Positions 1,244 to 46,894 of a stretch of DNA of 56,233 nucleotides are shown in pieces. The position numbers were made by a program, and so were the translations under genes. The number at the start of each line of letters is the position of its first letter. Position 1 is the first letter of the stretch. The stretch spans positions 1 through 56,233 of the forward strand of contig CAKKPH010000085.1 in the NCBI GenBank assembly GCA_919901585.1, written 5' to 3'. This DNA is from Thermodesulfovibrionales bacterium. GTDB lineage: Bacteria; Nitrospirota; Thermodesulfovibrionia; Thermodesulfovibrionales; UBA9159. The notes under the pieces were generated by a model. It worked only from the letters and a program-made list of their open reading frames with translations. It ran no database searches and was not told where the DNA came from.

Positions 1244-1353
1244 GTACTATAATGGAGCATACTGATTTTGAAATGCAAATTGCCTTGTCTGGAATCTTTG
1301 CATTTTTGGCTTATGAGGTGATAAAATTTATAATTCTTATATAATCACGGGGA

Positions 1354-2814: not shown

Positions 2815-2837
2815 GGAATTATAAGGAATTAGATATT

Positions 2838-4265: not shown

Positions 4266-4268
4266 ACA

Positions 4269-4853: not shown

Positions 4854-4902
4854 CTTTGTTTGGTCCTGTCTGAAGATACTGTTAAATTACAACCTCTCAC
4901 CA

Positions 4903-6159: not shown

Positions 6160-6194
6160 TATTACAGTATATGCATCAACCTTTTATTGTAATA

Positions 6195-6938
6195 TCAATG
6201 GACAACAGCTATAGGATTGTCATTGATAACTGCCGAATCCCTTCCATTGCTCAGGATGTCAACTATCCTGTCGATGGATTCGATATGGAACTGCTGTATC
6301 TCCTCCCTCGAAAAGTACGGGAAGATTGAGGCACTGATGGCAGTTCTATGTGCAAGGCTGACAGGCCTCTCCTTATTAAAGACTGAAAGAAAAAGCATTC
6401 CCTTAAATATCCTCTTGTTCGTCTTAAATGAAAACAGCGCCCTCTCGAGTGACTTTTCGAGAAAGATATCATTCCTCTGCTGCACATTCCTGTCTATCCT
6501 CACTGCCTGCACCCAGTATTTCCTGTCAATAATCCTGTCTGCCCTTATCTCGTTTAGGGTATGGCCGATGTTCTTTGTATTATTTGTGAAACTCCCGTGC
6601 GCAACCGTATCTGCTGCAAGATGGCTCATATAACCATAAACAAAGGCCTTCTGCTGCTGAGTCCTTGCAGAGTCAAGCAGGTTCAGCGCAACATCCCAGC
6701 TATGAGGATGCTTGTCATCGGGAAGGAACTTCTTTCCTATTATGATGTCTGCCATCAGATTGCCGTAGAGAAAGTCATGTCTGTACTTTTTAAGCAGGGA
6801 ATATATGCCTGCAGGAAGGAGATAACCGAGAGAGAGTATCTCGCTGCCGAGATAGACATGAGTAAGCGGCCCCCAGGCAAATGCAATAGACGGCAATAGC
6901 AGGACAGAAAGAAAAAATACTATCTTTAAAAACCTCAT
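6195..6938 (-). CDS. Secreted zinc-dependent phospholipase C family protein
   Basis: The predicted signal-peptide cleavage AFA|WGPLTH would expose an N-terminal Trp followed by His, as in Zn-PLC family proteins. Further His/Asp clusters are HPHSWD and HLAADTVAH. Confidence 0.55.
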   Translation of the reverse strand: MRFLKIVFFLSVLLLPSIAFAWGPLTHVYLGSEILSLGYLLPAGIYSLLKKYRHDFLYGNLMADIIIGKKFLPDDKHPHSWDVALNLLDSARTQQQKAFVYGYMSHLAADTVAHGSFTNNTKNIGHTLNEIRADRIIDRKYWVQAVRIDRNVQQRNDIFLEKSLERALFSFKTNKRIFKGMLFLSVFNKERPVSLAHRTAISASIFPYFSREEIQQFHIESIDRIVDILSNGRDSAVINDNPIAVVH

Positions 6939-32560: not shown

Positions 32561-33040
32561 ATGAGGTATGATGAATTTAGATATTTAGGAATTTTCCTCA
32601 CAGCTCTCATGGCGCTGAACCATATCTATGCGCTGCCTGCTTTATCAGAGGAAAAAAGAGTTTCTCCCAATAGCCACCACTTTGACCTTATCGAAAAACC
32701 TCTATGCACAGAGTGCCACATGAGCGATGACAGCGCAGATCTGAAGCCCATCTCCTCATTTAACCACAGCAGTGATTTCATCAGCAGCCACAGGTTCTAT
32801 GCAATGCAGCGTTCACAGATATGCACAGTATGCCACAGGGCATCTTTCTGCTCAGACTGCCATACCAACAAATCAGGGCTGAAACCTTCAGACAGGTATC
32901 AGGGCTCCCCTGAACGGTGGCTGCCACACAGGGGAAATTATCTCTTCCAACACAGGATAGACGGCAGCATTGACCCAACAAGCTGCTTCAGGTGTCACGG
33001 AAGACGGAACAACAAGCTATGCGTAAAATGCCACAAATAA
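32561..33040 (+). CDS. Small periplasmic multihaem cytochrome c (5 CxxCH motifs)
   Basis: 159 aa with a signal-like N-terminus. The motifs are CTECH, CTVCH, CSDCH, CFRCH and CVKCH. Confidence 0.8.
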   Translation: MRYDEFRYLGIFLTALMALNHIYALPALSEEKRVSPNSHHFDLIEKPLCTECHMSDDSADLKPISSFNHSSDFISSHRFYAMQRSQICTVCHRASFCSDCHTNKSGLKPSDRYQGSPERWLPHRGNYLFQHRIDGSIDPTSCFRCHGRRNNKLCVKCHK

Positions 33041-33762
33041 GAACCCCCTTTCCTTTACAACATGCATGCTTATGCATCAGGCTTGCCCTCTGTATGTTCT
33101 GCAGTCTAAACATTGCCTTTTTCCTGTGCGCATGCGGCACCAGTTCAGAGTCCGGCGTTTATGACATCAATAAAGGGCATAAATCAGCATGGGCTAATCC
33201 TGAATATATAGGCAAAGACGGATTTCATGGTTCACATGTCAGAGTCGTTGATGGCGAACCGCTGGGGACTGCGCTGTTTTTAAGGAGGTGCGCCGGCTGC
33301 CACGGGAACGAAGGTTCCGGAAAGATCGGCCCTGACATCCGGGGCAGTACTGCCACTCAGATCCGGTATTGCCTTGAGTCTGTCACTTATATGAAATGGC
33401 TTCGGATTATGCGCGATGAAGACCTTCAGGCAATCTCTGATTATCTTGCGAGTTCGCAACCTGCCGGCACGGTGAGCAGGCCTTCCGCTGTAAGCGCTGA
33501 TTCCTGCACTGAGTGCCACGGCACAGACTTAAAAGGAGGTATTTCTAAAATAAGTTGTTATTCGTGCCATAGCGGTCCGGACGGAACAGTAGGACACCCG
33601 GATGGATGGCTTTCACAAAATAGCAACCTTTCGAACTATCACGGCAGATATGCAAAGGACTATGCAACAGCATGTACTGCATGTCATGGCCCTGACCTTA
33701 GAGGTCCGGCTTTGCCAAGCTGCTATAACTGCCATGACGGCAGCGAATGGGCCCCCTTTTAA
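33019..33762 (+). CDS. Lipoprotein multihaem cytochrome c (class I cytochrome c domain plus two doubled-CxxCH units; 5 CxxCH)
   Basis: Lipobox-like FFLCAC. CAGCHGNEGSGKIGPDIRG is a class I domain. CTECHGTDLKGGISKISCYSCH and CTACHGPDLRGPALPSCYNCH are paired CxxCH units. The start codon is uncertain (32992, 33019 or 33028). Confidence 0.75.
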   Translation: MRKMPQIRTPFPLQHACLCIRLALCMFCSLNIAFFLCACGTSSESGVYDINKGHKSAWANPEYIGKDGFHGSHVRVVDGEPLGTALFLRRCAGCHGNEGSGKIGPDIRGSTATQIRYCLESVTYMKWLRIMRDEDLQAISDYLASSQPAGTVSRPSAVSADSCTECHGTDLKGGISKISCYSCHSGPDGTVGHPDGWLSQNSNLSNYHGRYAKDYATACTACHGPDLRGPALPSCYNCHDGSEWAPF

Positions 33763-33814: not shown

Positions 33815-34591
33815 ATGATTAAGAAAGTATCATTTTTGTCACCTGCATTACTTTCCCTTTTTTTGCTTGCCGCTGCCTCTAATGCTGCGGACTATCAAAT
33901 CAACATATGGGACAACTTCTTTGACCCGCAGACCATCACTATAAATGCCGGCGACACGGTAACATGGCAGAACTATGGGAACTTCATCCACACTGCAACG
34001 AGCGGCACAAACTGCAATTCCGACGGGAAATTCAATAGCGGCAATCTCTCAAAAAACCAGGCATATACTGTCCAGTTCAACGAGGCAGGGACTTACACTT
34101 ATTTCTGCATACCCCATTGCATGGCAGGCATGACAGGCACAATTACTGTAAATCCATCCACCCTCCCGCTGCCAAGCAGCCAGCAGAGCTTCAGTTATGC
34201 GCCTATATCATCCGCTGTGCTTAACCCGGACCCTTCTCAGGCAAAACCTATCGGCGTAGGTGATATCGCTACCGGAGGCGTTAACCTGGAGTTGGCTGTA
34301 AGCACAACTACATTCTCCGGCCCGGCAGACGTCTATTTTGCAATCGCAGCCCCTGCAATTGATTCCGACATCTACCTGCTTGATAAGAATTATGTCCTGC
34401 AGAAGCTCTCAGCGGCCGGCCTTGTACCATGGAAAGAGGATGTAACTGTGGTGAATGAACAGCTTTTCGGGAAGATAAACGTAACAACATCGGGCTTGCC
34501 GAAAACAACATACTACCTTTATCTTGCGGTAACTCCGGCAAACAGCTTTGGAACATATTATCTCTGGACGACCTATTTCATAGTACAATAG
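33815..34591 (+). CDS. Secreted type-1 copper (cupredoxin, plastocyanin/amicyanin-like) protein with an uncharacterised ~150-aa C-terminal domain
   Basis: Signal peptide, then the cupredoxin pattern ITINAGDTVTWQN...FIHTATSG. The ligand loop YFCIPHCMAGM matches C-x2-H-x4-M. Confidence 0.8.
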   Translation: MIKKVSFLSPALLSLFLLAAASNAADYQINIWDNFFDPQTITINAGDTVTWQNYGNFIHTATSGTNCNSDGKFNSGNLSKNQAYTVQFNEAGTYTYFCIPHCMAGMTGTITVNPSTLPLPSSQQSFSYAPISSAVLNPDPSQAKPIGVGDIATGGVNLELAVSTTTFSGPADVYFAIAAPAIDSDIYLLDKNYVLQKLSAAGLVPWKEDVTVVNEQLFGKINVTTSGLPKTTYYLYLAVTPANSFGTYYLWTTYFIVQ

Positions 34592-34646: not shown

Positions 34647-35057
34647 TCACTTTTTTACATTTCTGAATGTAAAAACTACCTGGTCCTCTTGCTTGTTCTT
34701 AGCTATTTTAACTATAAGGTCCCACTCGCCTTCCATTGTAAAATATACGTCCTCTATTGTATAAACACCATCCCCTTTTTCTTTTATCTTTGTCTTTTTG
34801 GAAGAGCCATGGCTGTGCACAGTCATCCATGGAGTTACTTCAATGAGCGCTCCTTCAACTTTTACCTTTGAATCACGTTCAAAAACTTTCAGTATAGCAG
34901 TATTGTTAATCCCCATTTGTGGAGGGTCAGGTTTCACCTGAAGTTGAACTACGAAGGTTCCGTTAAGTGATTTCTGTTCTATAACGTCTGCCGCACTGTC
35001 TTGACTAAAGCTGAATATCCATAAAAATATAACAAATACTGCCGTCTTAAGTATCAT
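34647..35057 (-). CDS. YtkA/FixH-like secreted small protein (possible metal-handling Ig-like domain)
   Basis: 136 aa with a signal peptide and the pattern ...VQLQVKPDPPQMGINNTAILKVF...IEVTPWMTVHSHGSS...GDGVYTIEDVYFTMEGEWDLIV, typical of YtkA-like domains. It has a Met/His cluster WMTVHSH. Confidence 0.6.
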   Translation of the reverse strand: MILKTAVFVIFLWIFSFSQDSAADVIEQKSLNGTFVVQLQVKPDPPQMGINNTAILKVFERDSKVKVEGALIEVTPWMTVHSHGSSKKTKIKEKGDGVYTIEDVYFTMEGEWDLIVKIAKNKQEDQVVFTFRNVKK

Positions 35058-35081
35058 GACATCCTCCTTTTTTATAACACC

Positions 35082-35693
35082 TTAATGTGGCGGCATCGGT
35101 ATCCATACCGGAATGATATTATTTACAAACGTAAATTTTTTTGCCAGTTCCCTGTCGTCAGCAAAATAGGGTTTCAGATAGATATAAAAGTCTTCATTCT
35201 TTTCTGCTATGTCTTCCTTGGAAATGGCATCTGAAGCTACATAGGCAACACTGTTTACTCTCAGATGCATATACCCTGGAAACACCTGCTCAAAATTCTT
35301 GAAAGGCACCTCTATCAGTTTTTCAACGGCGAGCGGTTTCTCCAGCTTGATTACGCTGGTCTCTCCTGTCTTATTTGCCAGATCATGAAGGGGAACTTCC
35401 TTCCATAATGTCCCTACCTGAACAAAACACCTGATCGAAGGCGTCATGAGGTAAAGATCATCCGTTGGAAATGGGTTGTCATAGTTGAGTTTTAACCTGT
35501 ACCGGTCTCCTGCATATGTGATGTCCTTGATATCAGATTTCAGTGAATACCACGCGAGTCTTTCCAGTTTTTTCTTGAGGGCAGCTCTTTCCTCTAAAAA
35601 CTTATTCTGCCGGTGGCCTATGAAGTAATCTATCGCCAGGGCAGAAAGCAAGATCAAGAGTACAGTAATTATAATCTTATATCTTTTTTCCAT
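35082..35693 (-). CDS. Uncharacterised N-terminally membrane-anchored protein (paralogue A)
   Basis: 203 aa with one N-terminal TM helix. It shares blocks with the next gene (LEERAALKKKLERLAWY, FVQVGTLWKEVPL, GYMHLRVNSVAYVASDAI). I recognise no family. Confidence 0.6.
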   Translation of the reverse strand: MEKRYKIIITVLLILLSALAIDYFIGHRQNKFLEERAALKKKLERLAWYSLKSDIKDITYAGDRYRLKLNYDNPFPTDDLYLMTPSIRCFVQVGTLWKEVPLHDLANKTGETSVIKLEKPLAVEKLIEVPFKNFEQVFPGYMHLRVNSVAYVASDAISKEDIAEKNEDFYIYLKPYFADDRELAKKFTFVNNIIPVWIPMPPH

Positions 35694-35746
35694 CCTATTT
35701 TATAAGTCCAGTACTTGTGTTGTACGTCAAACTCATGTTACTCCGC

Positions 35747-36346
35747 CTATCGCAACAGGGTTTTCACCCTACCTTTCTTCTTATCATCTCTAATGTAAAT
35801 GAACATTTCTTCATCTTTCTCAATTATATCTTCCCGGACTATAGCCTCTGCAGCTACATAAGAAATACTCTTAACCTTGACATGCATGTATCCTGACATG
35901 AGTTCTTCATAATTTTTATGGGGTATAGTAAATTTTACTGCTAAGGTGTACGGGGCATCAAGCCTCTCCACCGGATACTCCCCCCGTTTCTCCCTTGTGT
36001 CAATTACAGGGACCTCCCTCCATAGAGTGCCGACCTGTACAAAGACCTTCACTGCGAATATCATTATCCACATTTCCTCTTCAGGACGGATATTTTCGTA
36101 TATAAGCTTCATCGCATACTTTCTATCTTTTGGGTTATATGAGATTTCACCTATATTGGTTCTCTCAAGGTAATACGCAAGACGCTCAACTTTTTTCTTA
36201 TGAGCCATCCTTTCTTCGAGCAGTCTATTCTGCCTGTACTCCACTACAAAATCCACAATGAGTAATATTAATATCAGGAAGATGATACCAGTTAATAAAC
36301 GGTATGCGGTATTTTCTCTTTTCACATTCCTTCTCTGTGGATCCAT
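35747..36346 (-). CDS. Uncharacterised N-terminally membrane-anchored protein (paralogue B)
   Basis: 199 aa with one TM helix. Its shared blocks are LEERMAHKKKVERLAYY, FVQVGTLWREVPV and GYMHVKVKSISYVAAEAI. Confidence 0.6.
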   Translation of the reverse strand: MDPQRRNVKRENTAYRLLTGIIFLILILLIVDFVVEYRQNRLLEERMAHKKKVERLAYYLERTNIGEISYNPKDRKYAMKLIYENIRPEEEMWIMIFAVKVFVQVGTLWREVPVIDTREKRGEYPVERLDAPYTLAVKFTIPHKNYEELMSGYMHVKVKSISYVAAEAIVREDIIEKDEEMFIYIRDDKKKGRVKTLLR

Positions 36347-36789
36347 CGGTCGGTACGTGGACTTATCCAGTAGTACTCATCGCCGCTCTTTGTGAAGACC
36401 TCTTTTCCGCTGTCAGCAGTAAATCGTAATCTATACGTTAATATCAGGGAAACATCACCTTCATATGTCCTGTAAAGCTGTGGCATATCAAGCGGCACCT
36501 TTGCAATAACGATCATTTTCCTCTGTGCCGTCGAATATAAAATTCCGGATAGGCTGTCGGTGATCCTGTCGCTCAATAAATCACGCCCTGTGTCTGTCTG
36601 GACATAAAACCTTTTTTCAAAACCCGTGACCATGATGTTTTGCTTTGAGTTGTTCATCATGATGATTTCTATCCTGTATTCATCGTTGCCTGAGTAAGAT
36701 ATATTACTGACCTCTATACCCATATAGTCGATCAGCAATCGCTTTTCAAAAGAAAAGGCATCATTTAGGGGAAAGAATAATACCAACAA
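36322..36789 (-). CDS. Uncharacterised protein (155 aa), beta-rich
   Basis: The ORF lies in an operon-like position between the ABC ATPase and paralogue B. The TTG start is uncertain and there is no clear signal peptide or recognisable family. Confidence 0.4.
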   Translation of the reverse strand: MLVLFFPLNDAFSFEKRLLIDYMGIEVSNISYSGNDEYRIEIIMMNNSKQNIMVTGFEKRFYVQTDTGRDLLSDRITDSLSGILYSTAQRKMIVIAKVPLDMPQLYRTYEGDVSLILTYRLRFTADSGKEVFTKSGDEYYWISPRTDRWIHREGM

Positions 36790-36841
36790 AACTGTACCTA
36801 TGTGACAGATATAAAAAATATCATTCCTCCAAAAAATGCCA

Positions 36842-37558
36842 TCAAACTTCGCAGATTACGAACTTATGGTTGTACGTATCTTCAATAACTTCACCGTCCC
36901 GAAGCCTTATCACACGCTTGGCATGGCTTGCCTTCTGGGGGTCATGAGTAACCATCACGATTGTCAGACCCTCACTGTTCAGGTTCGCAAAGAGGTCCAT
37001 GATTTCTTCTCCTGTCTTTGAATCGAGGTTTCCGGTAGGCTCATCTGCAAGGATTATGGCAGGGTCATTCATAAGGGCCCTTGCAATAGAAACCCTCTGA
37101 GCCTCTCCGCCGCTCAGTTGGTGGGGAAGATGTGTTGCCCTTTTTCCAAGCCCAACCTTTTCTAACATTTTGAGAGCATACTCTTTATCCTTTGCCTTCC
37201 CCTTAACAGGACGGAAGGCAAAAGGAAGCATCACATTTTCAATAGCTGTCAGTGAAGATAGCAGTCTCGCCTCTTGAAATATATATGCCACCTTTGAACG
37301 CCTGAGATTAAGGAGTGCCTTTTCCGACAGGTTGTCTATCCTTGTATTCCCGATATATACCTCCCCTTCTGTAGGGAAGTCTATGCCTCCCAGTATGTTA
37401 AGAAGCGTAGACTTGCCCGAGCCGCTTGGTCCCATCACAGCGATATACTCGCCGGTTTTGATCTCAAGGCTGACATTGTTCAGCGCTGCTACCGGTGATT
37501 CGCCGATCTTGTATTGCTTCGAAATATTTTTTAACAGTACGATGCCATCATTAACCAT
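36842..37558 (-). CDS. ABC transporter ATP-binding protein (MacB/LolD-like)
   Basis: 238 aa with Walker A GPSGSGKST, signature LSGGEAQRVSIARA and Walker B ILADEPTGNLD. Confidence 0.92.
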   Translation of the reverse strand: MVNDGIVLLKNISKQYKIGESPVAALNNVSLEIKTGEYIAVMGPSGSGKSTLLNILGGIDFPTEGEVYIGNTRIDNLSEKALLNLRRSKVAYIFQEARLLSSLTAIENVMLPFAFRPVKGKAKDKEYALKMLEKVGLGKRATHLPHQLSGGEAQRVSIARALMNDPAIILADEPTGNLDSKTGEEIMDLFANLNSEGLTIVMVTHDPQKASHAKRVIRLRDGEVIEDTYNHKFVICEV

Positions 37559-37567
37559 AACCCCTCC

Positions 37568-38350
37568 CTACAGAGACTTGAAGGCTTCCGCAACCCTTAT
37601 CTTTGACGCATAGATTGCAGGATAAATACTGGCTGCAATCGTGGTTACAGTACCGAGTATTATTGCCATAACAAAAAATGACGGATTAATCTTTATCGCT
37701 ATATCTTTGAAGAGTATCGGGCCGACGATATATGCCAGGCCGCTCCCGATAATAAAGCCAATGACTCCCCCGGTAATACCGATCAGGGCTGCCTCGTAAA
37801 GGAACAACCTGATAAGCTGGCCTTTTGATGCACCCATTGCCTTCAGGAGCCCTATGTCCCGCAAACGGCTGTGGATGGAACCGAGTATTATATTGAAGAC
37901 CCCAATACAACTGATTATTAGCGCCGCTACCACAAAGCTCAAGAGCAGTGTAGCTGTTTTCTGAAATATCTTTGATTGTGCAGTAGCTATCTCACTCTGT
38001 GATGTGGCCCTTACACCCAGTATCTTTTTATTTATCTCGATAGCAGCATCTCCTACAGGACATTTTGGACACATTGCCCTAACATTCATCATCGAGACCT
38101 TTCCCAGCTTCCCGAATACGGTCTGGCAGGCCTTAAGGTTCATGAAAACCATATAATCGTCAGGGGAGTCAGTCTCTCGTAAAATACCTGTAACCTTCAT
38201 TTTGCTCTGCGCTATATCAAGGACATCTCCCACCTTTGTGTCCGTTATGACAGCGAAAAGCTTCCCGGCCATTACCTCATCGTCATTTACCATGAATCTG
38301 CCCTCAGAAATTTCCCACCAGAACCTCGCCACCTGTTCTTTCTGCAGCAT
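37568..38350 (-). CDS. C-terminal part (periplasmic domain remainder plus FtsX module) of a MacB-like ABC permease interrupted by an in-frame TAG
   Basis: 260 aa with the FtsX TM bundle and DIGLLKAMGASKGQLI. It is in the same reading frame as 38390-38782, separated by one TAG plus 13 sense codons. Confidence 0.7.
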   Translation of the reverse strand: MLQKEQVARFWWEISEGRFMVNDDEVMAGKLFAVITDTKVGDVLDIAQSKMKVTGILRETDSPDDYMVFMNLKACQTVFGKLGKVSMMNVRAMCPKCPVGDAAIEINKKILGVRATSQSEIATAQSKIFQKTATLLLSFVVAALIISCIGVFNIILGSIHSRLRDIGLLKAMGASKGQLIRLFLYEAALIGITGGVIGFIIGSGLAYIVGPILFKDIAIKINPSFFVMAIILGTVTTIAASIYPAIYASKIRVAEAFKSL

Positions 38351-38389
38351 TACACCACCGACAATGACATCTCTACCCTTGACCGTAGT

Positions 38390-38782
38390 CTATTCATATA
38401 GCCTGGGGGCAAAGGTAGGCGGCGGGAAGGCTGCTCCGCCTATAGTGCCATCCTGAAACACAAGGGCGCCCATTTTTTCCCATCCTGAAACTATTGCATC
38501 CTGGTAAACCTTTTCTATTTCAGGAATGGCAGCCTCGGGTATATACGTTCCTGTACCAATTCCAAAGGTCTTCAGACTCTGCTGCGATTTGCTATCCACA
38601 GGTGTTATGGTGAGGCTGTGTCCGTAACGTGCGATCACCTGGAAAACCTCCCTCTGGCCTGAAGATGCTGTTATCATAACGGATATGAGCATAGAGACCG
38701 CTATCGCTATCCCAAGAGAGGTATATATGGTCCTCATCTTCCTTTTTCTTACCTCTTTCATAGCGATCATGTAAAGCTTCAT
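38390..38782 (-). CDS. N-terminal part (TM1 plus start of periplasmic domain) of the same interrupted MacB-like permease
   Basis: 130 aa starting MKLYMIAMKEVRKRKMRTIYTSLGIAIAV..., the typical FtsX-family N-terminus. It ends at TAG (38392-38390). The two fragments plus the linker total about 404 codons, the same size as the three intact permeases in this window. Confidence 0.7.
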   Translation of the reverse strand: MKLYMIAMKEVRKRKMRTIYTSLGIAIAVSMLISVMITASSGQREVFQVIARYGHSLTITPVDSKSQQSLKTFGIGTGTYIPEAAIPEIEKVYQDAIVSGWEKMGALVFQDGTIGGAAFPPPTFAPRLYE

Positions 38783-38800
38783 AGCATCCCCCTCAATGTA

Positions 38801-39478
38801 CTATTCTGAGAAAACTCCGTCTTTCATCTTATATATTTTATCAGTCATTGCTGCAAGCTCAAGGCTGTGTGTGACGAGCAGGAAAGTGATCTGATCCTTC
38901 TCATTCGCATCAGAAAAAAAGTCCATTACTTCAGATTCTGTCTCTGCATCCAGATCACCTGTAGGCTCGTCAGCAATGATAATAGAGGGTTTGTTAATAA
39001 ATGCCCGCGCGATCGCAACCCTCCTTTGCTGCCCCCCGGATAATTCTGATGGAAATGAATTCATCTTGTCTGACATCCCCATAGCTGACAAAATCTCTTC
39101 AGCATAATCATAAATTTCCTTCCTGTTCCCTTTCTTTTTAAAAATTACCGGGAGCACAACATTGTCAATCGTACGGAGGGTCGGTATAAGACTCGCAAAT
39201 TGGAAAATAAAACCAAACCTTTCGTTCCTTACAGTAGACAGGTTACTGTCGTTTAATTTCCATATGTCTGTATTGTCAATATAAACAGTTCCTTTAGTCG
39301 GCTCTGTTAATCCGCCGATAATACTTAGGAGCGTAGTCTTTCCTGAGCCTGAATGGCCCACTATGGAAATAAAACTGCCCTTTTCTATTTCGAGGTTCAC
39401 GGAACGTAGTGCTTCAATCTTCTGGCCGCCTACATCATAGACCTTCCATAGATCTTTTATAACTATTAAATTTCCCAT
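38801..39478 (-). CDS. ABC transporter ATP-binding protein (MacB/LolD-like)
   Basis: 225 aa with Walker A GHSGSGKTT, signature LSGGQQRRVAIARA and Walker B IIADEPTGDLD. Confidence 0.92.
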   Translation of the reverse strand: MGNLIVIKDLWKVYDVGGQKIEALRSVNLEIEKGSFISIVGHSGSGKTTLLSIIGGLTEPTKGTVYIDNTDIWKLNDSNLSTVRNERFGFIFQFASLIPTLRTIDNVVLPVIFKKKGNRKEIYDYAEEILSAMGMSDKMNSFPSELSGGQQRRVAIARAFINKPSIIIADEPTGDLDAETESEVMDFFSDANEKDQITFLLVTHSLELAAMTDKIYKMKDGVFSE

Positions 39479-40711
39479 CTATTCACCGGTACGTATCGCA
39501 TCATAGGGATGCAGTTTGCTGCCCTTGAGTGCAGGATAAAAGGTCCCTGCTATTCCGACAAGGATTGCTACACAGATCGATCCAAGAGCAATAAAAACTA
39601 TAGAATCAACTGAGGGCCATATATACGGCATATTGAGGGCCTTAAGGTTGAATATAATCGTCCTCTGATATATACGCATGATGGCTATACCAAAGACCAC
39701 ACCCAGAAATCCCCCCAGGCCTGTAAGGAGGGTTGCCTCATACAAGATCAATCTGAATATAGATGCCTTTCTTGCTCCGAGTGCCCTTAAAAGACCTAAT
39801 TCTCTCTTCCTTTCATTGATAATTGTCGAAAAAATGGCGCCTATCATCAGAGTATTTGCAATAATCAGCACTCCACTAAGTATAATTGTACTGCTAAAAA
39901 GTGTAACAAGGTTCTGCCTGACGGACGTTATTATATTGCCGGCAGTTATTACCTTCACACCGGGATCTTTGCTGATGGTAAAAGAGATATACGGCAGTTT
40001 AGCTCCGACTTCTAACTGAATCAGGGCGGCTGATATCTCGCCTCTCACGAGTTTTAAGGGGACAACGCCTTTAATGTTTTGGGATTCCTCTGCCATGGAA
40101 TAGGCCTTCTCTATATTTATGAATATAGCATTGTCATAAAGGCCGATCCCTGTCCTGCCGAGCTTGCCGTAAACCCTAAGGGTCTGGCCATAAAAAAAGA
40201 CCTTATCCCCCACATTATAGGTATTTAATCCTCCGATTATCGCATCATCAATCTGGAGAGGACCTTCGAGTTTGTCTTCAAGCCACGGCATTACGGTAAA
40301 GTCACTCTGCGGGTCAAAACCGATAATAAATGCGTTGCCGATAACGCAGCAGTCACCTTCTACACTCGTAAGGAAGAGCTGAGGAGACACTTTTCTTACT
40401 CCCTTTACTGACGATATTGTCTGCATTAACCCTCTATTCATATAAAAGACCGAAGGCTCACCGGTCAGAAGGGCAGACTTCATGCTTATCATCGAACCTT
40501 TGGGCACAACGAGGAGGTCTGCACCGAATTTTGACAGACCTTTCTTCAGGCTGCTATTGACCCCCCACATCAGTGTAGAAGTGGAAAAAATAGCTCCGCT
40601 CACAATGGCTATTGCGAGAACCAGTGCTGAAGTCCTAAAGGTTCTGCGCATTAGGTTCTGAGAAGCCAGGTATATAAGTGACAGCTTATCGCTTATTTGT
40701 TTATCTGTCAT
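39479..40711 (-). CDS. ABC transporter permease, FtsX/MacB-like
   Basis: 410 aa with an N-terminal TM helix, a periplasmic domain, and a C-terminal FtsX module containing RELGLLRALGARKASIF. Its stop abuts the ATPase start. Confidence 0.88.
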   Translation of the reverse strand: MTDKQISDKLSLIYLASQNLMRRTFRTSALVLAIAIVSGAIFSTSTLMWGVNSSLKKGLSKFGADLLVVPKGSMISMKSALLTGEPSVFYMNRGLMQTISSVKGVRKVSPQLFLTSVEGDCCVIGNAFIIGFDPQSDFTVMPWLEDKLEGPLQIDDAIIGGLNTYNVGDKVFFYGQTLRVYGKLGRTGIGLYDNAIFINIEKAYSMAEESQNIKGVVPLKLVRGEISAALIQLEVGAKLPYISFTISKDPGVKVITAGNIITSVRQNLVTLFSSTIILSGVLIIANTLMIGAIFSTIINERKRELGLLRALGARKASIFRLILYEATLLTGLGGFLGVVFGIAIMRIYQRTIIFNLKALNMPYIWPSVDSIVFIALGSICVAILVGIAGTFYPALKGSKLHPYDAIRTGE

Positions 40712-40783: not shown

Positions 40784-42256
40784 TCACGTAGTGGTGCTGC
40801 GACTTATCGCCAGCTCTTTCAGGCTTCTCGGCACTATAACACTGTCATGATGTCCTGCGCCGCTCGGGAGGAAACCTATAAGCTTATCACTCTTCACATC
40901 TATTATAAACATACCTGATACTGTTTTTTGGTATCCGCTAAAGACTCCGAGGAGATGTTTGCCGTCGCCTGTCACACCCATTGTATGGACGTCTGGTCCG
41001 ATCTCTATCTCCTTTATAACCTCCCATTTAACAGCATCTATCACTGCAACACTGTTAGGAGTCGGAGATGGCCACCACAAGGCAACATAGACCTTTTTTG
41101 CATCAGGAGTGAATCCCATATGGAAGGTCTGAGGGTAAGTTCCTCTCCATTCCGGTTTCGTTACAACAGCTTTCTGCTTCCAGTTCATAGGATTTGATTG
41201 GTCGGTTGAATCATACACATATATGGCATTCTCCATTACCGCACCCATGAAGAGGAAGTGTTTCCCGTCAGGCGAAAACCCTGCCTGATGACCATAGTTC
41301 TCTACTTTTGCTACGGAGATCTCCCAGGTGTCTTTATCGATTTTCTTGAGTGCCTGCATCGGCTTGTTTCTGGCTGAGTACATAGCTGCAACAGGCTCAT
41401 AATTGGCCGTGTCAAAGACTACTGAGACACCTGATGTCCTGAGTGCAGCTACTGCCCATTTGCCCCTTGGGTCAAAGAGGACTGCGTCAAGTCCGCATAC
41501 ATTCGTTGCCCTCGGACCTGAAACCTTGCCCTCAACGAGAAAATTCTCTCCGCCGGGAACGAGTTCCCAATCAATCTTGATACCCTTTAGGCCTTTGTAG
41601 TCATATTTACCTGTCTTCGGGTCAGGGTGCAATTTCTTTACTATGAGTTTGCCCCCACCGCTCCATGCCTCTTTTACATTCTTGATATTAGGTATCCAGT
41701 CAAAGAAAACAGCTGCGTCAACCTTTGATGTTTCCCTATCGAATACACCAAAAATGTCCTTCTGCCCGTCTGAAACAGTAAACTTCTTTGCATCGTGTGA
41801 GATAGTCACATGGACTCCTATGCCGAGTCCGGTTGTCTCTGCAACATCCTCAATGAGATTCATCTTTGTACCGTCGTACTTAACCCTGTAGATATGAAAA
41901 CCCTCGGCGGGTTCTTTGACTTTAGTGGGAATACCGTAAATATAGAGGTTTTTTCCTCCCTGCGAATTCACAATAAACTCAAAACCCTTATAGGGGTCTT
42001 CAGATGGGAATGCAGCTATATGATGGATAATCGGATTTGTGTCACCATAGTTAACAAAAGAAATCCATGCAAGGGTTCTCCCTGTTGACATATCGTGAGC
42101 TGCAACAGTCCCGGCAAATTTCCCAGGCAAAAGGAAAATATATTTTCCTATTTTCTCGTAAACATCATTTAACGACGCACCCTGCGAAGCTGCCGGCAGA
42201 CTAAATATGGAAAGCAAAATAAAAAGAGCAACAATCTTTTTCTTACAGTGCTGCAT
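40784..42256 (-). CDS. Secreted beta-propeller copper enzyme, thiocyanate dehydrogenase (TcDH)-like
   Basis: 490 aa with a Sec signal peptide (AAS|QGA region) and repeated propeller-blade patterns. K46, H78-H79, H149, E231, D257, H323, F378-H379, H424 and H470 reproduce the spacing of the TcDH active-site residues as I remember them (K103, H135/H136, H206, E288, D314, H381, F436/H437, H482, H528). A strong AGGAGGT SD is present. Confidence 0.7.
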   Translation of the reverse strand: MQHCKKKIVALFILLSIFSLPAASQGASLNDVYEKIGKYIFLLPGKFAGTVAAHDMSTGRTLAWISFVNYGDTNPIIHHIAAFPSEDPYKGFEFIVNSQGGKNLYIYGIPTKVKEPAEGFHIYRVKYDGTKMNLIEDVAETTGLGIGVHVTISHDAKKFTVSDGQKDIFGVFDRETSKVDAAVFFDWIPNIKNVKEAWSGGGKLIVKKLHPDPKTGKYDYKGLKGIKIDWELVPGGENFLVEGKVSGPRATNVCGLDAVLFDPRGKWAVAALRTSGVSVVFDTANYEPVAAMYSARNKPMQALKKIDKDTWEISVAKVENYGHQAGFSPDGKHFLFMGAVMENAIYVYDSTDQSNPMNWKQKAVVTKPEWRGTYPQTFHMGFTPDAKKVYVALWWPSPTPNSVAVIDAVKWEVIKEIEIGPDVHTMGVTGDGKHLLGVFSGYQKTVSGMFIIDVKSDKLIGFLPSGAGHHDSVIVPRSLKELAISRSTTT

Positions 42257-42356
42257 TTCGTTACCTCCTACATTGTTATTTAAAATCTCCGTACAACATT
42301 GCTGACCTGATTTTTTTCACCTCCCTTGAGCCTATGTGATCTGGCCTTTTATATAA

Positions 42357-42372
42357 TGCAATTTGGGTGCCA
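42357..42372 (-). promoter_or_regulatory. Sigma-54 (-24/-12) promoter upstream of the TcDH-like gene
   Basis: The reverse complement is TGGCACCCAAATTGCA, an exact TGGCAC-N5-TTGC, about 100 nt upstream of the ATG at 42256. A sigma-54-dependent activator is encoded 0.8 kb away. Confidence 0.8.
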
Positions 42373-42623
42373 TTCATTATTTCAGAAAATATTTTTGAAC
42401 TGTATTCTCTTGAATCTGGTTCATTGTCAAGCTGAAGCCTGTAACCTGTTGTAATTTAAAGGGCCTCTTCCGGCAGTTCTCCTTTCTGCCTTGCGCTGCG
42501 GTACGTGTCTATGCCTTAACAGCACAAGACCGGGCATTTTTTAACTTTTCAGGTTTTCATTTTGAAACGCCCTGCTTTCCATTCTGGAAACAAATGAAAC
42601 TACGGATTTACTGAAAGGGCTTG

Positions 42624-42917
42624 CTATAATCTCTCCAGATGGGGGTGACAACGCCGGCAATCAAGGTGAGGACAACCCTTGAAAGGCTCCTTCATCAGGT
42701 TAGAATGTATTGACTCAATCCAGAGTTTTTTCAGCAGATCAAGGTTGAATGTACGGGATGTATGGCATGAGATTGTCCTCTCATGACACTCGCTGCAGAG
42801 ACGGTATGTTTTCACAGTACTGCTGCTTAATAAAACAGTTGAGAAGCCTATTGCGATAAAAGCAACCAGTAGGCTTGTCAGGATTAAATGCCTCCGGCTT
42901 GTCTTGAACATATGCAT
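42624..42917 (-). CDS. Small membrane-anchored dihaem cytochrome c
   Basis: 97 aa with an N-terminal TM helix (LILTSLLVAFIAIGFSTVLL) and two CxxCH motifs (CSECH, CRRCH). It has its own sigma-54 promoter. The SD is weak. Confidence 0.55.
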   Translation of the reverse strand: MHMFKTSRRHLILTSLLVAFIAIGFSTVLLSSSTVKTYRLCSECHERTISCHTSRTFNLDLLKKLWIESIHSNLMKEPFKGCPHLDCRRCHPHLERL

Positions 42918-42945
42918 AGTATTTCACGGTACATGCCTTTCATAG

Positions 42946-42961
42946 AGCAATTTGGGTGCCA
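42946..42961 (-). promoter_or_regulatory. Second sigma-54 (-24/-12) promoter, upstream of the dihaem cytochrome gene
   Basis: The reverse complement is TGGCACCCAAATTGCT. The 15-nt core is identical to the first promoter, and the flanks are also similar (about 45-nt duplicated cassette). Confidence 0.75.
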
Positions 42962-43018
42962 TACTTTCTTTGAAAAACAGCTGGACATAAAACCGGGGAT
43001 TATCGCTGAACAGATATG

Positions 43019-44404
43019 TCAGGAAGCCCGTGACCTTAAGGAACAGAGGTCAATATTATACTCCTTCATTTTTCTCCAGAGGGTAGTCCGTCCGATTTTC
43101 AGCTCCCGGCATACCTCAGCAAGATTGTGAGGGTGCCTTTCGATGCTCTGGATTATTATTTTTTTCTCCCACTCGTCAAAATCCATGGGTCTGTTTTCAG
43201 AAGCAGCTTGTTTCGAAGCAGGACAGGAGACCTTTGAAAGGGGAAACGGCATGCTATCAGAACTGATCATGCCCGAATCAGTCAGAGCGACTGCATAACA
43301 GATTATGTTATAAAGCTCCCTGACATTGCCGGGATAATCATAGGCACAGATCCTCTCGATAACGCCTGGGGCAAAACCGGTAATTTTTTCACCTTTTTTG
43401 CCGCCACTGCATTCTGACAGAAACTTCTGAGCCAGAAAAGGTATATCTTCCTTATGCTCTCTGAGCGGAGGCATATTAATATGCAATACATTTATCCTGT
43501 AATAGAGGTCTTCCCGGAACTCATGCTTTTGTACAGACTCCAGAAGATCGGCGTTTGTAGCAGCAAGCACCCTAACGTCCACAGGAATCCCGTGGTCACT
43601 GCCGACCTTTCTGATAATCTTATCCTGCAGTACGCCGAGCAGCTTAGCCTGAAGGGGTTTAGGTATTGACCCTATCTCATCGAGCAGTATGCTTCCCCCG
43701 TTGGCAGCCTCAAAGAGACCTTTCCTTCCCATTATGGCACTGGTAAAAGCACCTCTTGTATGCCCGAACACTTCGCTCTCAAAGAGGTTTTCGGGTATAG
43801 ATGTGCAATTCACCGATATGAAGGGCCCCTTTGCCCTTGAGCTGTTCAAGTGAATTGCCCTGGCAAGAAGATTCTTACCGGTGCCGGTCTCTCCTGTTAT
43901 GAGAACCGGAAAGTCATTGCCGGCAATCTTGCGGAGACGAGCCTTTACATCCATCATCAAAGGACTCTTTCCTACAATCATTGAAAGGCCTTCATCTTCA
44001 GCAGCAATGTCATAGAGCATCCTGCTCATCTCAGCATCTGTTTCAGCTGTCTGAATAGCCTTTTTTGCCCTGTGCAGTATCTCGTCATATTCAAACGGCT
44101 TGGTTATATAATCATAAGCACCCATTTTCATCGCAATAACCGCCGATTCAATAGTCCCGTACCCCGTCATTATTATTACCGGTGTCTTCCGGCCTTTGTT
44201 CTTTATATGTTCGAGCAGACCTATGCCGTCCATGCCGTCCATGCGGAGATCGGTAATCACCAGATCTATATTGTTGCAGTTCATTTGTTTAACAGCGTTT
44301 TCTCCGCCGTCAGCCTGAAATATCTGATAGCCCTCTCTCCTGAAAAGGATCGAGAGGCTTTTTCTCATCCCTTCTTCATCATCTACTATTAGTATTGACG
44401 ACAT
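43019..44404 (-). CDS. Sigma-54-dependent (NtrC-family) response regulator
   Basis: 461 aa with a receiver domain (ILIVDDEEGMRKSL, DLRMDGMDG) and an AAA+ sigma-54 interaction domain (GETGTGKN, a GAFTSA variant of the GAFTGA loop). It ends in a C-terminal Fis-type HTH. Confidence 0.93.
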   Translation of the reverse strand: MSSILIVDDEEGMRKSLSILFRREGYQIFQADGGENAVKQMNCNNIDLVITDLRMDGMDGIGLLEHIKNKGRKTPVIIMTGYGTIESAVIAMKMGAYDYITKPFEYDEILHRAKKAIQTAETDAEMSRMLYDIAAEDEGLSMIVGKSPLMMDVKARLRKIAGNDFPVLITGETGTGKNLLARAIHLNSSRAKGPFISVNCTSIPENLFESEVFGHTRGAFTSAIMGRKGLFEAANGGSILLDEIGSIPKPLQAKLLGVLQDKIIRKVGSDHGIPVDVRVLAATNADLLESVQKHEFREDLYYRINVLHINMPPLREHKEDIPFLAQKFLSECSGGKKGEKITGFAPGVIERICAYDYPGNVRELYNIICYAVALTDSGMISSDSMPFPLSKVSCPASKQAASENRPMDFDEWEKKIIIQSIERHPHNLAEVCRELKIGRTTLWRKMKEYNIDLCSLRSRAS

Positions 44405-46094
44405 TCACTTCCTCCGTTTTATTGTTCGCTGTGTTTGGAGAAATAGGAAGCTCAATCCTCAGTTCCGTCCCTCTGCCTATTTCGCTCAAGCCATAAACCT
44501 GCCCTCCATGCTGCCTTATTATCTGCTGGACGATAGAAAGTCCGAGCCCTGACCCTTTCGCCTTTGTGGAATAAAACGGCTGAAAAGCCCTCGCAAGTGT
44601 TTCGTTAGCCATCCCAGAACCCGTATCTGTTATAACAATGGTTACTGAGTCATGCTGTTTGTAAGGCTCTACCTTTGCGACATAAAGGGCAGTCACCTTA
44701 AGGGTTCCTCCCATAGGCATTGACTGTATCGAATTAATTAATACGTTCCAAAAAACCTGTTTTACAGCACCCCTGTCCGCAAATATGTCAGGCATTCCCC
44801 TGTCGTAAGACCGCTGAACCGTAATAGCCGGGTTATTCATTCCATCGCTTGTGAGCAAAGACAATGTCTCGTCTATAAGACTGCAAAGGTTTATATATGA
44901 TCTGTTCAGGTCAGGAGGCTTCGCAAAGCGCAGAAAATCAGAAATAATGGTATTGAGTCTGTTAACCTCCTGTTCGATAATATCAAGCAGTTCCGTATCC
45001 TCACCGGCAAGCCTTGTATGACGCTTGAATATGCCGACCGAGTTCTTTATTGCGCCGAGAGGGTTCCTTATCTCATGCGCTATAGTGGCTGCCAGTTTTC
45101 CTACAGATGCGAGCTTTTCGGATTCGAGGAGCTCGCTCTGGGTGTTCTTGAGGTTCTCATATGCCATTCTGAGTTGTCCGACGATATCCGTCAGTTTCTT
45201 TCTTGAGGACTGCAGCTCGTCAAACGACTTGGTAAATCCATGGGCTAACCCTATTATAAGACCGGAAAATATGACCAGCTTAATCACATGCCAATACCAC
45301 CAACTGGGGTCCCATAACCGGGAGAGTGAAAAAAGCACCTCGCTTTCAAAAAAAAGAAAGGACGACAAGGCAAAGATATGAAAAAGGATGTCATTGGTCC
45401 GGTTGAAATACTTTAAGAAAAAATAGCCCGCAAGCAGGAAAAAAACGGAAGAAAGGACATTGAATACTATGGTCGAGGAGGTGAATTCACCTCTTATGGG
45501 AAAAGTTACCGGCGTGTGATGAGAAGCGCTTATTTCAATAACATTAGGGAGTGGAGAAGGATATTTTGAGAGCAATAATGCAAAAGCGAAAATTGCTGTA
45601 ATCCCGGTTATTAGCATCATCTGTCTGATATAGGGAGAATCTTTATTGTCCCTGGCTACAGACAATGAGCTCAGGAAAAAAAATAAGCCACCGCCAAAGG
45701 CACTTAGTGAATGAAACCAGACAAAAAGGTTGGTGCAGTGATTGGAATAGGCATGGAACATGTCAAAGACCCCCATCGAGACGAAACCGAGGAAAAGGTA
45801 AAAATTGCACCTCTTGCCGGATGAACGGTATTCCCTGTAAATCACATAGGCTATTATAATTGAGATTATTCCACAGTAAGACTCAAAGAGGGAGTGTGTA
45901 AACGTGTCTGTCCAGAATACATTATTACGGCTAAACAACTTGCTCGCAGCAGACATCAAAAATATGACAATGATCAGAGCCCCAGAAAGCAGATAAAATC
46001 TGTTTTTGAGATGAGCGGCCTCGTTACTGGAAGGGTCGATCCGGTAGACTATATTGTCAAAAAGGGCTTTCTCCTCATTTTCCCGGACTTCCAT
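44379..46094 (-). CDS. Sensor histidine kinase with a multi-pass membrane N-terminal sensor domain
   Basis: 571 aa with about 7 TM helices. It has a coiled coil, the H-box AHEIRNPLGAI, and the HATPase motifs DTGSGM and GSGLGLSIV. It overlaps the regulator gene by 26 nt. Confidence 0.9.
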   Translation of the reverse strand: MEVRENEEKALFDNIVYRIDPSSNEAAHLKNRFYLLSGALIIVIFLMSAASKLFSRNNVFWTDTFTHSLFESYCGIISIIIAYVIYREYRSSGKRCNFYLFLGFVSMGVFDMFHAYSNHCTNLFVWFHSLSAFGGGLFFFLSSLSVARDNKDSPYIRQMMLITGITAIFAFALLLSKYPSPLPNVIEISASHHTPVTFPIRGEFTSSTIVFNVLSSVFFLLAGYFFLKYFNRTNDILFHIFALSSFLFFESEVLFSLSRLWDPSWWYWHVIKLVIFSGLIIGLAHGFTKSFDELQSSRKKLTDIVGQLRMAYENLKNTQSELLESEKLASVGKLAATIAHEIRNPLGAIKNSVGIFKRHTRLAGEDTELLDIIEQEVNRLNTIISDFLRFAKPPDLNRSYINLCSLIDETLSLLTSDGMNNPAITVQRSYDRGMPDIFADRGAVKQVFWNVLINSIQSMPMGGTLKVTALYVAKVEPYKQHDSVTIVITDTGSGMANETLARAFQPFYSTKAKGSGLGLSIVQQIIRQHGGQVYGLSEIGRGTELRIELPISPNTANNKTEEVNVVNTNSR

Positions 46095-46164: not shown

Positions 46165-46241
46165 TGGTCGGGGCGGCGAGATTTGAACTCACGGCCACTC
46201 GCACCCCAAGCGAGTGCGCTACCAGGCTGCGCTACGCCCCG
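46165..46241 (-). tRNA. tRNA-Pro (anticodon GGG), CCA encoded
   Basis: The reverse complement is CGGGGCGTAGCGCAGCCTGGTAGCGCACTCGCTTGGGGTGCGAGTGGCCGTGAGTTCAAATCTCGCCGCCCCGACCA. It folds by hand into a cloverleaf with a 7-bp acceptor, D-stem GCGC/GCGC, anticodon stem CTCGC/GCGAG with loop TTGGGGT, and T-arm GTGAG-TTCAAAT-CTCGC. Confidence 0.92.
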
Positions 46242-46242
46242 A

Positions 46243-46617
46243 TTACCGCATCTGGCTCAGTATGCTCCTGAGCCTCATTTTGACCTTCTCTACAATCTCT
46301 CTGGAAGATGGCGCTACATGAGCGGCTTGCCTTGCAGGCCTGTTGTCCCCGAACCTCTTTCTGACGCCTTCTATAGTATATCTTTCTTCATACAGGAGTC
46401 TCTTTATCTGGAGCACCATATCGAGGTCTTTCCTTGCATATACCCTCTGTCCGGACCTGTTCTTGCGCGGCTCAAGAAAGGAAAACTCGGTCTCCCAGTA
46501 CCTCAGCACATAAGGTTCAACTCCCGCAATCCTGCTGACCTCACCGATCTTGTAAAAGAGTTTCTCAGGGAAAAAATTCTGAGTCTTTACAATATGCTCA
46601 GCATGAGATCTATGCAT
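46243..46617 (-). CDS. MerR-family transcriptional regulator (the ihfA-linked type)
   Basis: 124 aa with the HTH YKIGEVSRIAGVEPYVLRYWETEF. It lies downstream of ihfA and upstream of tRNA-Pro, as in many Proteobacteria. Confidence 0.85.
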   Translation of the reverse strand: MHRSHAEHIVKTQNFFPEKLFYKIGEVSRIAGVEPYVLRYWETEFSFLEPRKNRSGQRVYARKDLDMVLQIKRLLYEERYTIEGVRKRFGDNRPARQAAHVAPSSREIVEKVKMRLRSILSQMR

Positions 46618-46894
46618 CTATTTTTTCAATTGCTTTTTCGAGCTTGTTGCTCGCCTTGAATTTAATGACCCTGCGAGGGGTTATTTTGAGGTCTTCGCCT
46701 GTCTTGGGGTTTCTCCCGCGCCTTTCGTTCTTTTTCTTCACGTCAAAGGTACCGAACCCCGAGATCTTTACTGATTCTCCCTCGGCAAGGGTCTGCCTGA
46801 CAGTATCAAAGATCAGCTCGATTATATTCTGCGATTCGATCTTCGAGAGCCCTATCTTTCCGAATACCGTATCTACCAGATCAGCCTTGGTCAT
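46610..46894 (-). CDS. ihfA: Integration host factor subunit alpha (HU/IHF family)
   Basis: 94 aa starting MTKADLVDTV..., containing GFGTFDVKKKNERRGRNPKTGEDLKITPRRVIKFKAS. Confidence 0.9.
   Translation of the reverse strand: MTKADLVDTVFGKIGLSKIESQNIIELIFDTVRQTLAEGESVKISGFGTFDVKKKNERRGRNPKTGEDLKITPRRVIKFKASNKLEKAIEKIDA

Follow-up and report, generated by a model that had tools for sequence, protein, structure and literature searches.

A predicted sigma-54 switch for a thiocyanate dehydrogenase operon, with a possible shared enhancer inside the transcription unit

A stretch of DNA of 56,233 nucleotides (nt) from an uncultured Thermodesulfovibrionales bacterium of the phylum Nitrospirota (contig CAKKPH010000085.1), called the window below, encodes on its minus strand a thiocyanate dehydrogenase (TcDH, gene tcdh). 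TcDH is the key copper enzyme in the oxidation of thiocyanate by the "cyanate pathway", a process of relevance to the treatment of gold-mine and coke-plant effluents. Upstream of tcdh, in the same orientation, lie the genes of a sensor histidine kinase, an NtrC-family enhancer-binding protein and a small dihaem cytochrome. Two promoter cores of the sigma-54 (-24/-12) type, P1 before tcdh and P2 before the cytochrome gene, are situated in this region, with a pair of palindromes between them (Table 1). P1, the palindromes and the activator probably make up a canonical two-component, enhancer-dependent sigma-54 switch of the TcDH operon. The NtrC-type two-component sigma-54 regulon is itself known; what is new here is that the cis-acting elements of TcDH control are defined and that they are conserved across phyla. 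The only unusual aspect is a possible shared enhancer inside the transcription unit; the switch is otherwise a textbook one.

The promoter cores were located by scanning the whole window with the pattern TGGCAC-N5-TTGC. There are two exact matches, at 42372-42358 and 42961-42947, both on the minus strand and with the sequences quoted in an earlier note on this DNA. The expected number of chance matches is 0.11 per window, and none of 100 shuffled sequences contained two or more. The cores of P1 and P2 share the same 15 nt, TGGCACCCAAATTGC, which occurs exactly twice in the window. In both, the GG and GC doublets are exactly 10 nt apart within TGGCAC-N5-TTGCW, without any mismatch (in P1, GG is at 42371-42370 and GC at 42359-42358). 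P1 sits 116 nt before the TcDH gene and has a predicted transcription start at about 42346, so that about 90 nt of leader precede the tcdh ATG at 42256. P2 sits past the stop codon of the activator gene, 30 nt before the gene of the 97-residue cytochrome, and its predicted start at about 42935 gives a leader of about 18 nt to the ATG at 42917. Both promoters are co-oriented with the gene that follows them, at a plausible leader distance. Sigma-70 promoters for the tcdh and cytochrome genes were rejected, because no sigma-70-like site was found on the minus strand in either intergenic region.

Two 13-base pair (bp) palindromes of the form TTYCA-N3-TGRAA, designated upstream activating sequences UAS1 and UAS2, lie between the cytochrome stop codon and P1 and are the sole exact copies in the window. 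Their centres are 22 bp apart. Measured from its centre, UAS1 precedes the P1 start by 237 nt and follows the P2 start by 352 nt; for UAS2 the corresponding distances are 215 nt and 374 nt. The expected number of such sites is 0.47 per window, and a pair of them was found in none of 300 simulated windows. The pair is conserved in locus L001, the closest of the loci compared below, where the enhancer block is identical at 33 of 35 positions. Upstream of UAS1, at a distance of 5 nt, the window has a further GTTTCA half-site; L002, L005 and L006 have it too, and in L001 it is degenerate. The earlier note had proposed GAAAC-containing repeats between 42553 and 42600 as enhancer sites. These repeats are present, but the conserved unit is the palindrome. 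The first repeat, GTTTTCATTTTGAAAC, contains UAS2 (42555-42567). The second (42586-42600) lies mostly outside UAS1, overlapping it by only 4 nt, but includes the GTTTCA half-site.

The region was compared with 37 other TcDH loci. Loci L001 to L013 are Nitrospirota contigs from metagenome-assembled genomes, whose TcDH is 68-91% identical to that of the window; L014 to L037 come from Beta-, Gamma- and Alphaproteobacteria and from a second Nitrospirota clade. The gene order in L001-L013 is kinase, activator, a small variable gene, TcDH, ABC transporter genes, unknown genes and ytkA. Nearly all of these 13 loci have, before TcDH, a GG-N10-GC element that comes close to the sigma-54 consensus and whose 5-nt spacer varies (for example TGGCACATGGCTTGCT in L005, GGGCACGCAGCTTGCT in L002, TGGTATAGGAATTGCT in L004 and TGGCACACAGAATGCT in L009). 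Over the whole set the -24/-12 element is found before TcDH, at the orthologous position, in L001, L002, L004-L007, L009, L010, L012-L018, L021-L031 and L035-L037, that is, in most of the 37 loci and in several phyla, with the GG and GC doublets kept and the spacers varying. L001, whose TcDH is 91% identical to that of the window, has both promoters. Its P2 core is identical at 16 of 16 positions, compared with 68% and 79% identity in the flanks, and its P1 core at 14 of 16.

The palindromes were searched for as pairs, each site matching at least 9 of the 10 consensus positions and the two sites lying 15-40 nt apart. Within 700 nt upstream of TcDH, a total of 25.9 kb, 32 such pairs were found, and they occur in 31 of the 37 loci. 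The remaining 474 kb of these loci contain only four pairs, showing an approximately 146-fold enrichment upstream of TcDH; one of the four precedes a second sigma-54 promoter, in L007. The usual position of the pair is 75-200 nt upstream of the -24/-12 element. Upstream of P1 in the window it lies within looping distance, and the pair is conserved across phyla. This phylogenetic footprint, which extends over at least 30 loci, argues strongly that the palindrome pair is an enhancer to which the activator binds. Short consensus motifs can arise at random, and the core matches and palindromes might in principle be chance or unrelated sites, the genes being driven by sigma-70 promoters. The shuffled and simulated sequences, the enrichment across phyla, the lack of sigma-70-like sites on the minus strand of both intergenic regions and the conservation of an adjacent, dedicated sigma-54 activator make this explanation very improbable.

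The activator has the three domains of the NtrC family, a receiver (Response_reg, E = 2.5e-31), a sigma-54 AAA+ domain (Sigma54_activat, 2.1e-64, with AAA_lid_14, 4.6e-19) and a Fis-type helix-turn-helix (HTH_8, 2.7e-11). Open reading frames (ORFs) and Pfam matches confirm what the earlier note had stated, namely that an NtrC-family activator with a GAFTSA loop and a multi-transmembrane kinase are encoded immediately upstream in the same orientation. Orthologues of the kinase precede the activator gene in L001-L013. The helix-turn-helix sequence IGRTTLWRKMK, in the region of the recognition helix, is invariant in the 12 loci that have the gene on the contig. In NCBIfam the activator is most similar to AtoC, NtrC, GlrR and ZraR, and the kinase to AtoS and ZraS. 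All scores are below the equivalog cut-offs (436 bits compared with 714 for AtoC, 371 compared with 559 for NtrC), and the activator is therefore not an orthologue of any named system.

Table 1. Position of the predicted regulatory elements and genes in the window
Feature	Coordinates	Strand	Basis
P1, sigma-54 -24/-12 promoter core TGGCACCCAAATTGCA	42357..42372	-	Exact consensus match
P2, sigma-54 -24/-12 promoter core TGGCACCCAAATTGCT	42946..42961	-	Exact consensus match
UAS1, palindrome TTCCATTCTGGAA, predicted activator binding site	42577..42589	.	10/10 consensus positions
UAS2, palindrome TTTCATTTTGAAA, predicted activator binding site	42555..42567	.	Exact consensus site
Extra GTTTCA half-site, 5 nt upstream of UAS1	42595..42600	-	Comparison with relatives
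Extended P1 cassette copy, about 46 nt	42344..42389	-	Gapped local alignment, score 45; repeat family D1
Extended P2 cassette copy	42935..42976	-	Gapped local alignment; repeat family D1
NtrC-family enhancer-binding protein (receiver, sigma-54 AAA+, Fis-type helix-turn-helix)	43019..44404	-	Pfam
Multi-transmembrane sensor histidine kinase (MASE3-like membrane domain, HisKA, HATPase_c)	44379..46094	-	Pfam
TcDH homologue, 490 residues, Sec-type signal peptide	40784..42256	-	phmmer against the Protein Data Bank
Small membrane-anchored dihaem c-type cytochrome, 97 residues (two CxxCH plus conserved SCH, W..S.H and C)	42624..42917	-	ORF, family conservation
Downstream co-directional genes: two MacB/FtsX-type ABC permease and ATPase pairs, three conserved unknown proteins, YtkA-like protein	34647..40711	-	ORFs, Pfam

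In the proposed mechanism the membrane kinase would sense a signal and phosphorylate the activator, which would then oligomerize on the two palindromes. Through looping of the DNA and hydrolysis of ATP, the activator would open the closed complex formed by the sigma-54 holoenzyme at P1, leading to the transcription of tcdh, the two ABC transporters, the three unknown genes and ytkA. P2 would drive the small dihaem cytochrome gene, most likely by using the same pair of palindromes, which would act from about +350 to +375. No terminator was predicted on the minus strand in either intergenic region, including the one after the cytochrome gene, and transcripts started at P2 should therefore read on into tcdh. 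The earlier note had suggested that the kinase, the regulator and sigma-54 act in this order on the TcDH operon and the small cytochrome gene, and the layout, the -24/-12 elements and the palindrome pairs of the other loci support this suggestion.

Several observations weigh against the mechanism. The distance of 215-237 nt between enhancer and P1 is longer than in most loci. Neither the stretch from the enhancer to P1 nor the region upstream of P2 has a match to the integration host factor (IHF) consensus WATCAANNNNTTR, with up to one mismatch allowed. The activator gene is outside the flanks compared in the proteobacterial loci and in the second Nitrospirota clade, so that its orthology there is deduced from the shared palindrome only. 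The window contains no rpoN gene, as judged by the lack of an RpoN box in its six-frame translation, and the presence of rpoN in the genome is suggested only by the intact, dedicated activator. In the window and L001 the sigma-54 contact loop of this activator (residues 218-223) has the sequence GAFTSA, which departs from the canonical GAFTGA; F and T are intact. Three further points concern P2. No palindrome matching at least 9 of the 10 positions was found upstream of it in a search extending to window position 55542. Its leader has no Shine-Dalgarno sequence, and the same is true in L001 and L013. In L002, L005 and L006 the cytochrome gene starts 13 nt past the activator stop codon and has no promoter of its own, which makes P2 dispensable in these relatives.

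The loop variant is plausibly compatible with activity. The five other orthologues checked (L002, L004, L005, L008 and L009) have GAFTGA, and no mention of a GAFTSA variant was found in the literature searched. In NorR, serine at the second glycine of GAFTGA (G266 substitutions, Bush et al. 2010) still permits activation and partly escapes negative control (PMC2941729). By analogy the GAFTSA activator is plausibly functional, and the loop might further tune its response in the window and L001 lineage. NorR is, however, regulated by a GAF domain and is not a response regulator, whereas the activator in the window is controlled by a receiver and carries the serine naturally. As to IHF, the earlier note had remarked that the protein, often needed for looping, is encoded 4 kb away. 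The IHF-alpha gene does exist, at 46610-46894, but it lies outside the conserved neighbourhood. IHF-assisted looping was rejected for this reason and for the lack of a site in the two stretches named above.

Just before P2 comes the 3' end of the activator gene. Since an activator site is lacking on the upstream side, P2 must use the pair of palindromes 352 and 374 nt downstream of its start if it is served by this regulator at all. That P2 is active through a downstream enhancer can be rated, from the sequence comparisons, somewhere between tentative and evenly balanced. The more specific proposal, that the single internal enhancer (42555-42589) activates both co-directional promoters, from -215 and -237 in the case of P1 and from +352 and +374 in the case of P2, is advanced tentatively. 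If it is true, transcription started at P2 must pass through the activator-occupied enhancer and through P1. The order activator, P2, small gene, palindrome pair, P1 and tcdh is also found in L001, L013 and L004. L013, whose TcDH is 68% identical to that of the window, has P2 (TGGCATTGAACTTGCT) at 5240 and P1 at 5792, with the cytochrome gene (5285-5590) and the two palindromes (starting at 5593 and 5617) in between. In L004 ytkA takes the place of the cytochrome gene as the small gene before the enhancer. That at least four lineages have this layout (the window, L001, L013 and L004) suggests selection for a design in which an accessory gene is coupled to the operon.

A different explanation, rather unlikely although it deserves attention, is that only P1 works, P2 being a recently copied or gene-converted silent duplicate, and that the cytochrome gene is expressed by read-through from the kinase-activator operon. 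The lack of an upstream activator site, the short leader without a Shine-Dalgarno sequence and the relatives that do without P2 all fit this explanation. It is also consistent with the similarity of P1 and P2, which is unusual only in the window and L001 lineage and suggests a recent copy. A silent duplicate does not agree well, however, with a P2 core that is fully kept between the window and L001 while its flanks have diverged, or with the promoters of unrelated sequence found at the same position before the L013 cytochrome gene and the L004 ytkA gene. Enhancer-binding proteins can, furthermore, act from downstream sites, as is known for NtrC sites relocated downstream of glnAp2 and for the ftr elements of FlbD in Caulobacter. 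The window would share with these precedents an enhancer inside or downstream of the transcribed region, which would serve P2, and the use of one enhancer by two promoters. It differs from them in that P1 and P2 point in the same direction, that the putative enhancer lies between the two, and that a complete gene of 294 nt separates it from P2.

It is improbable that P2 is a real sigma-54 promoter served by another activator encoded elsewhere, or by an activator acting from solution, rather than by the downstream pair. Several activators are usually encoded in genomes with sigma-54, and at high concentration such proteins can act from solution; the lack of a cognate site upstream of P2 would be accounted for in this way. 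Upstream of P2, however, where the activator gene has its coding 3' end, no other conserved dyad was found, and the AGGTYACRGGCTTC match in that stretch is neither significant nor kept in register in L001. Moreover, the 15 nt of the core are identical in P2 and P1, and P2 is found again specifically in TcDH clusters. Use of the palindrome pair by P2 remains the preferred reading.

The similarity between P1 and P2 extends beyond their cores, as the earlier note had observed. A repeat finder reports a direct repeat of 36 nt with 81% identity and a spacing of 589, and a gapped local alignment superimposes 42344-42389 on 42935-42976, a length of about 46 nt. When the flanks are scored without the core they are only marginally above shuffled sequences, 69 and 105 of 1000 shuffles reaching the observed scores. 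At 40 positions not fixed by the sigma-54 consensus P1 and P2 agree 21 times, while promoters of unrelated genomes agree at 11.0 ± 3.1 of the same positions, with a maximum of 18. In view of these statistics a "duplicated cassette of about 45 bp" is a fair description. Near-identity of the two promoters, with 21-22 of 40 positions shared, is confined to the window and L001 lineage; the best explanation of it is a copy or a gene conversion within that lineage. In L013 only 6 of the 40 positions are shared. That locus has two promoters without a sequence duplication, showing that the two-promoter layout is not simply a product of the duplication seen in the window.

Two larger duplications were considered and rejected. 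The sequence AGGTYACRGGCTTC occurs 75 nt upstream of both cores in the 589-nt register (repeat D13), which might have indicated a longer duplication or a second activator site. The match is not significant without the core (105 of 1000 shuffles), overlaps the activator stop codon, and loses its register in L001 through a 19-nt insertion or deletion. A tandem duplication of 589 bp was rejected because the similarity is confined to the cassette of about 46 nt.

The leader of tcdh appears to be unstructured. Folding z-scores are 0.33 for the region between the cytochrome gene and P1 and -0.28 for the leader, neither of them significant, and the Rfam matches in the window amount to one transfer RNA (tRNA). 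A structured or riboswitch-like leader was accordingly rejected. The leader contains a Shine-Dalgarno-like sequence, GGAGGTGA, at 42317-42324 on the minus strand. The distance from the predicted P1 start to this sequence is about 22 nt, and the real tcdh ribosome-binding site follows about 60 nt further on. The sequence is kept in the tcdh leaders of all Nitrospirota loci examined (L001, L002, L004-L009 and L013). The tiny ORFs behind it are not conserved, being ATG-TAA, ATG-GAA-TAG, or absent. This element could be a 5' messenger RNA stabilizer or standby site of the STAB-SD kind, or a CsrA-type target.

TcDH clusters have been described in Thioalkalivibrio thiocyanoxidans and T. paradoxus (Berben et al. 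2017; PMC5744179, PMC5328954), where a cluster with a kinase and a sigma-54 activator is induced on thiocyanate (PMC5744179). The activator was presumed to regulate the TcDH operon, and no promoter or binding site was described (PMC5744179). The literature searched contained no description of TcDH promoters, and no pairing of "thiocyanate dehydrogenase" with "sigma-54" in that spelling. The Thioalkalivibrio cluster resembles the window in combining TcDH with a kinase and a sigma-54 activator. In L026 (T. thiocyanoxidans) a candidate -24/-12 element, TGGCATGAATTTCGCT, and a palindrome matching at 9 of 10 positions precede the TcDH gene. The Thioalkalivibrio kinase, however, has a GAF domain, whereas that of the window has a MASE3-like membrane domain, and the two-component genes are downstream of the operon there and upstream of it here. 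The putative electron acceptors (fccAB and the 97-residue dihaem protein) and the export routes (Tat and a Sec-type leader) are also different. The NtrBC/glnAp2, AtoSC and ZraSR systems share with the window the receiver, AAA+ and HTH_8 domains and paired dyad sites upstream of a TGGCAC-N5-TTGC promoter, but differ from it in the palindrome, in the GAFTSA loop, in the target genes and in the sensor domain.

The regulation of TcDH had hitherto been guessed from gene neighbourhoods only. The -24/-12 promoter and the 13-bp TTYCA-N3-TGRAA palindrome, conserved from Nitrospirota to Alpha-, Beta- and Gammaproteobacteria, are elements that can now be tested, and they might be used for predicting further members of the regulon, for building thiocyanate or copper biosensors and for probing what the MASE3-type kinase senses. 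L007 provides an example of a predicted member. A second palindrome pair and a TGGTATAGGGATTGCT promoter (609-760) precede an operon (1295-6503) inserted between the activator gene and tcdh, which encodes a TonB-dependent receptor, a YHS-domain protein, a ferredoxin-like protein and ExbB-ExbD-TonB. This suggests that the regulon can include an outer-membrane uptake system, possibly for copper.

The protein encoded by tcdh, which the earlier note had called TcDH-like, is a genuine TcDH homologue as judged by its similarity to solved structures. It matches Protein Data Bank (PDB) entry 8q9x with E = 1.4e-200 over residues 27-490 and entry 5f75 with 4e-193, and also 6uwe and 5oex. Thiocyanate oxidation is the predicted activity. 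The homology is full-length, and residues H78, H79, H149, D257, H323, H379 and H470, which we take from published structures to be the copper ligands, are invariant across 14 homologues. A weak NCBIfam match to L-NosZ (15.9 bits compared with a cut-off of 700) was dismissed in favour of TcDH. The N-terminus is a Sec-type signal peptide (MQHCKKKIVALFILLSIF...) without a twin-arginine motif. The proteobacterial TcDHs are Tat substrates: L026 has SRRKFL, and the names of the PDB entries describe Tat-signal proteins. If TcDH is exported unfolded, its copper would have to be inserted once it is in the periplasm, in agreement with the YtkA-like and ABC transporter genes of the operon.

The 97-residue ORF before the enhancer is, on the evidence of its conservation, a real dihaem protein. 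It has an N-terminal hydrophobic anchor and two CxxCH motifs, which are invariant or nearly so in 12 family members. The invariant residues are C41, C44, H45, C51, H52, W66, S69, H71, C82 and H91, while C87 and C90 are nearly invariant. Mismatches to the L001 gene fall mostly in the third codon position (14, 12 and 25 at the three positions). No match to the ORF was found in Pfam, in the PDB or in a word-indexed search of 5.8 billion proteins. The family was recovered only by synteny and by an exhaustive HMMER search, which found 11 cluster representatives among 1.84 billion proteins. Orthologues are at the same position in L001, L005/L010, L006, L013 and L091. The copy in L002/L003 (6437-6720) is frameshifted, its first CxxCH and its C-terminal CxxCHP being in different frames. 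The family is rare and undescribed; its members have 90-150 residues and the signature CxxCH-x3-SxSCH ... W..S.H ... C....CxxCHP, and many carry a lipoprotein-type LxGC signal.

The cytochrome is a putative electron acceptor of TcDH. It may instead, at less than even odds, serve the sensory module as an accessory, for instance by partnering the MASE3-type kinase in redox or ligand sensing. In L002, L005 and L006, where it starts directly behind the activator gene, the kinase-activator unit includes it as a third gene. In L090 a distant member of the family (380-802) lies beside tatA and a MASE3-HisKA kinase gene (2264-4033) on a contig without a TcDH gene, and the putative acceptor of the Thioalkalivibrio cluster is a flavocytochrome c, fccAB (PMC5744179). 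The L090 contig is only 4 kb long, however, and a TcDH gene may be just outside. The remaining family members that could be located sit in TcDH clusters, and the sigma-54 promoter of the cytochrome gene in the window, L001 and L013 would cause it to be induced together with tcdh. Just past the end of the TcDH operon, the opposite (plus) strand encodes a cytochrome c (32992-33762) and a plastocyanin/azurin-like cupredoxin (33815-34591), which are alternative candidate acceptors. Other genes occupy the equivalent position in L001.

The genes downstream of tcdh are probably part of the P1 transcript. Their order is the same in L001, L002, L004, L005, L006 and L009. The gene of the second FtsX/MacB-type permease is split by a single in-frame stop codon (38390-38392, minus strand) into ORFs at 38390-38782 and 37568-38350. 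The sequence reads LYE*TTVKG, compared with LYEETTVKG in L001, and is otherwise 94% identical to the intact 404-residue L001 gene. Either a nonsense mutation or an error in sequencing may account for the stop codon, and recoding at this site is a further possibility.

A tRNA-Pro(GGG) gene (46165-46241, minus strand) is situated about 70 nt upstream of the kinase gene. Since it is so close and on the same strand, the kinase-activator unit may be co-transcribed with the tRNA or start just after it. A MerR-family gene (46243-46617) and the IHF-alpha gene lie directly beyond. In L008 an inverted repeat of about 100 nt (3780-3890), resembling MITE or REP elements, is inserted between a predicted sigma-54 promoter and a ygaP-like gene that precedes tcdh.

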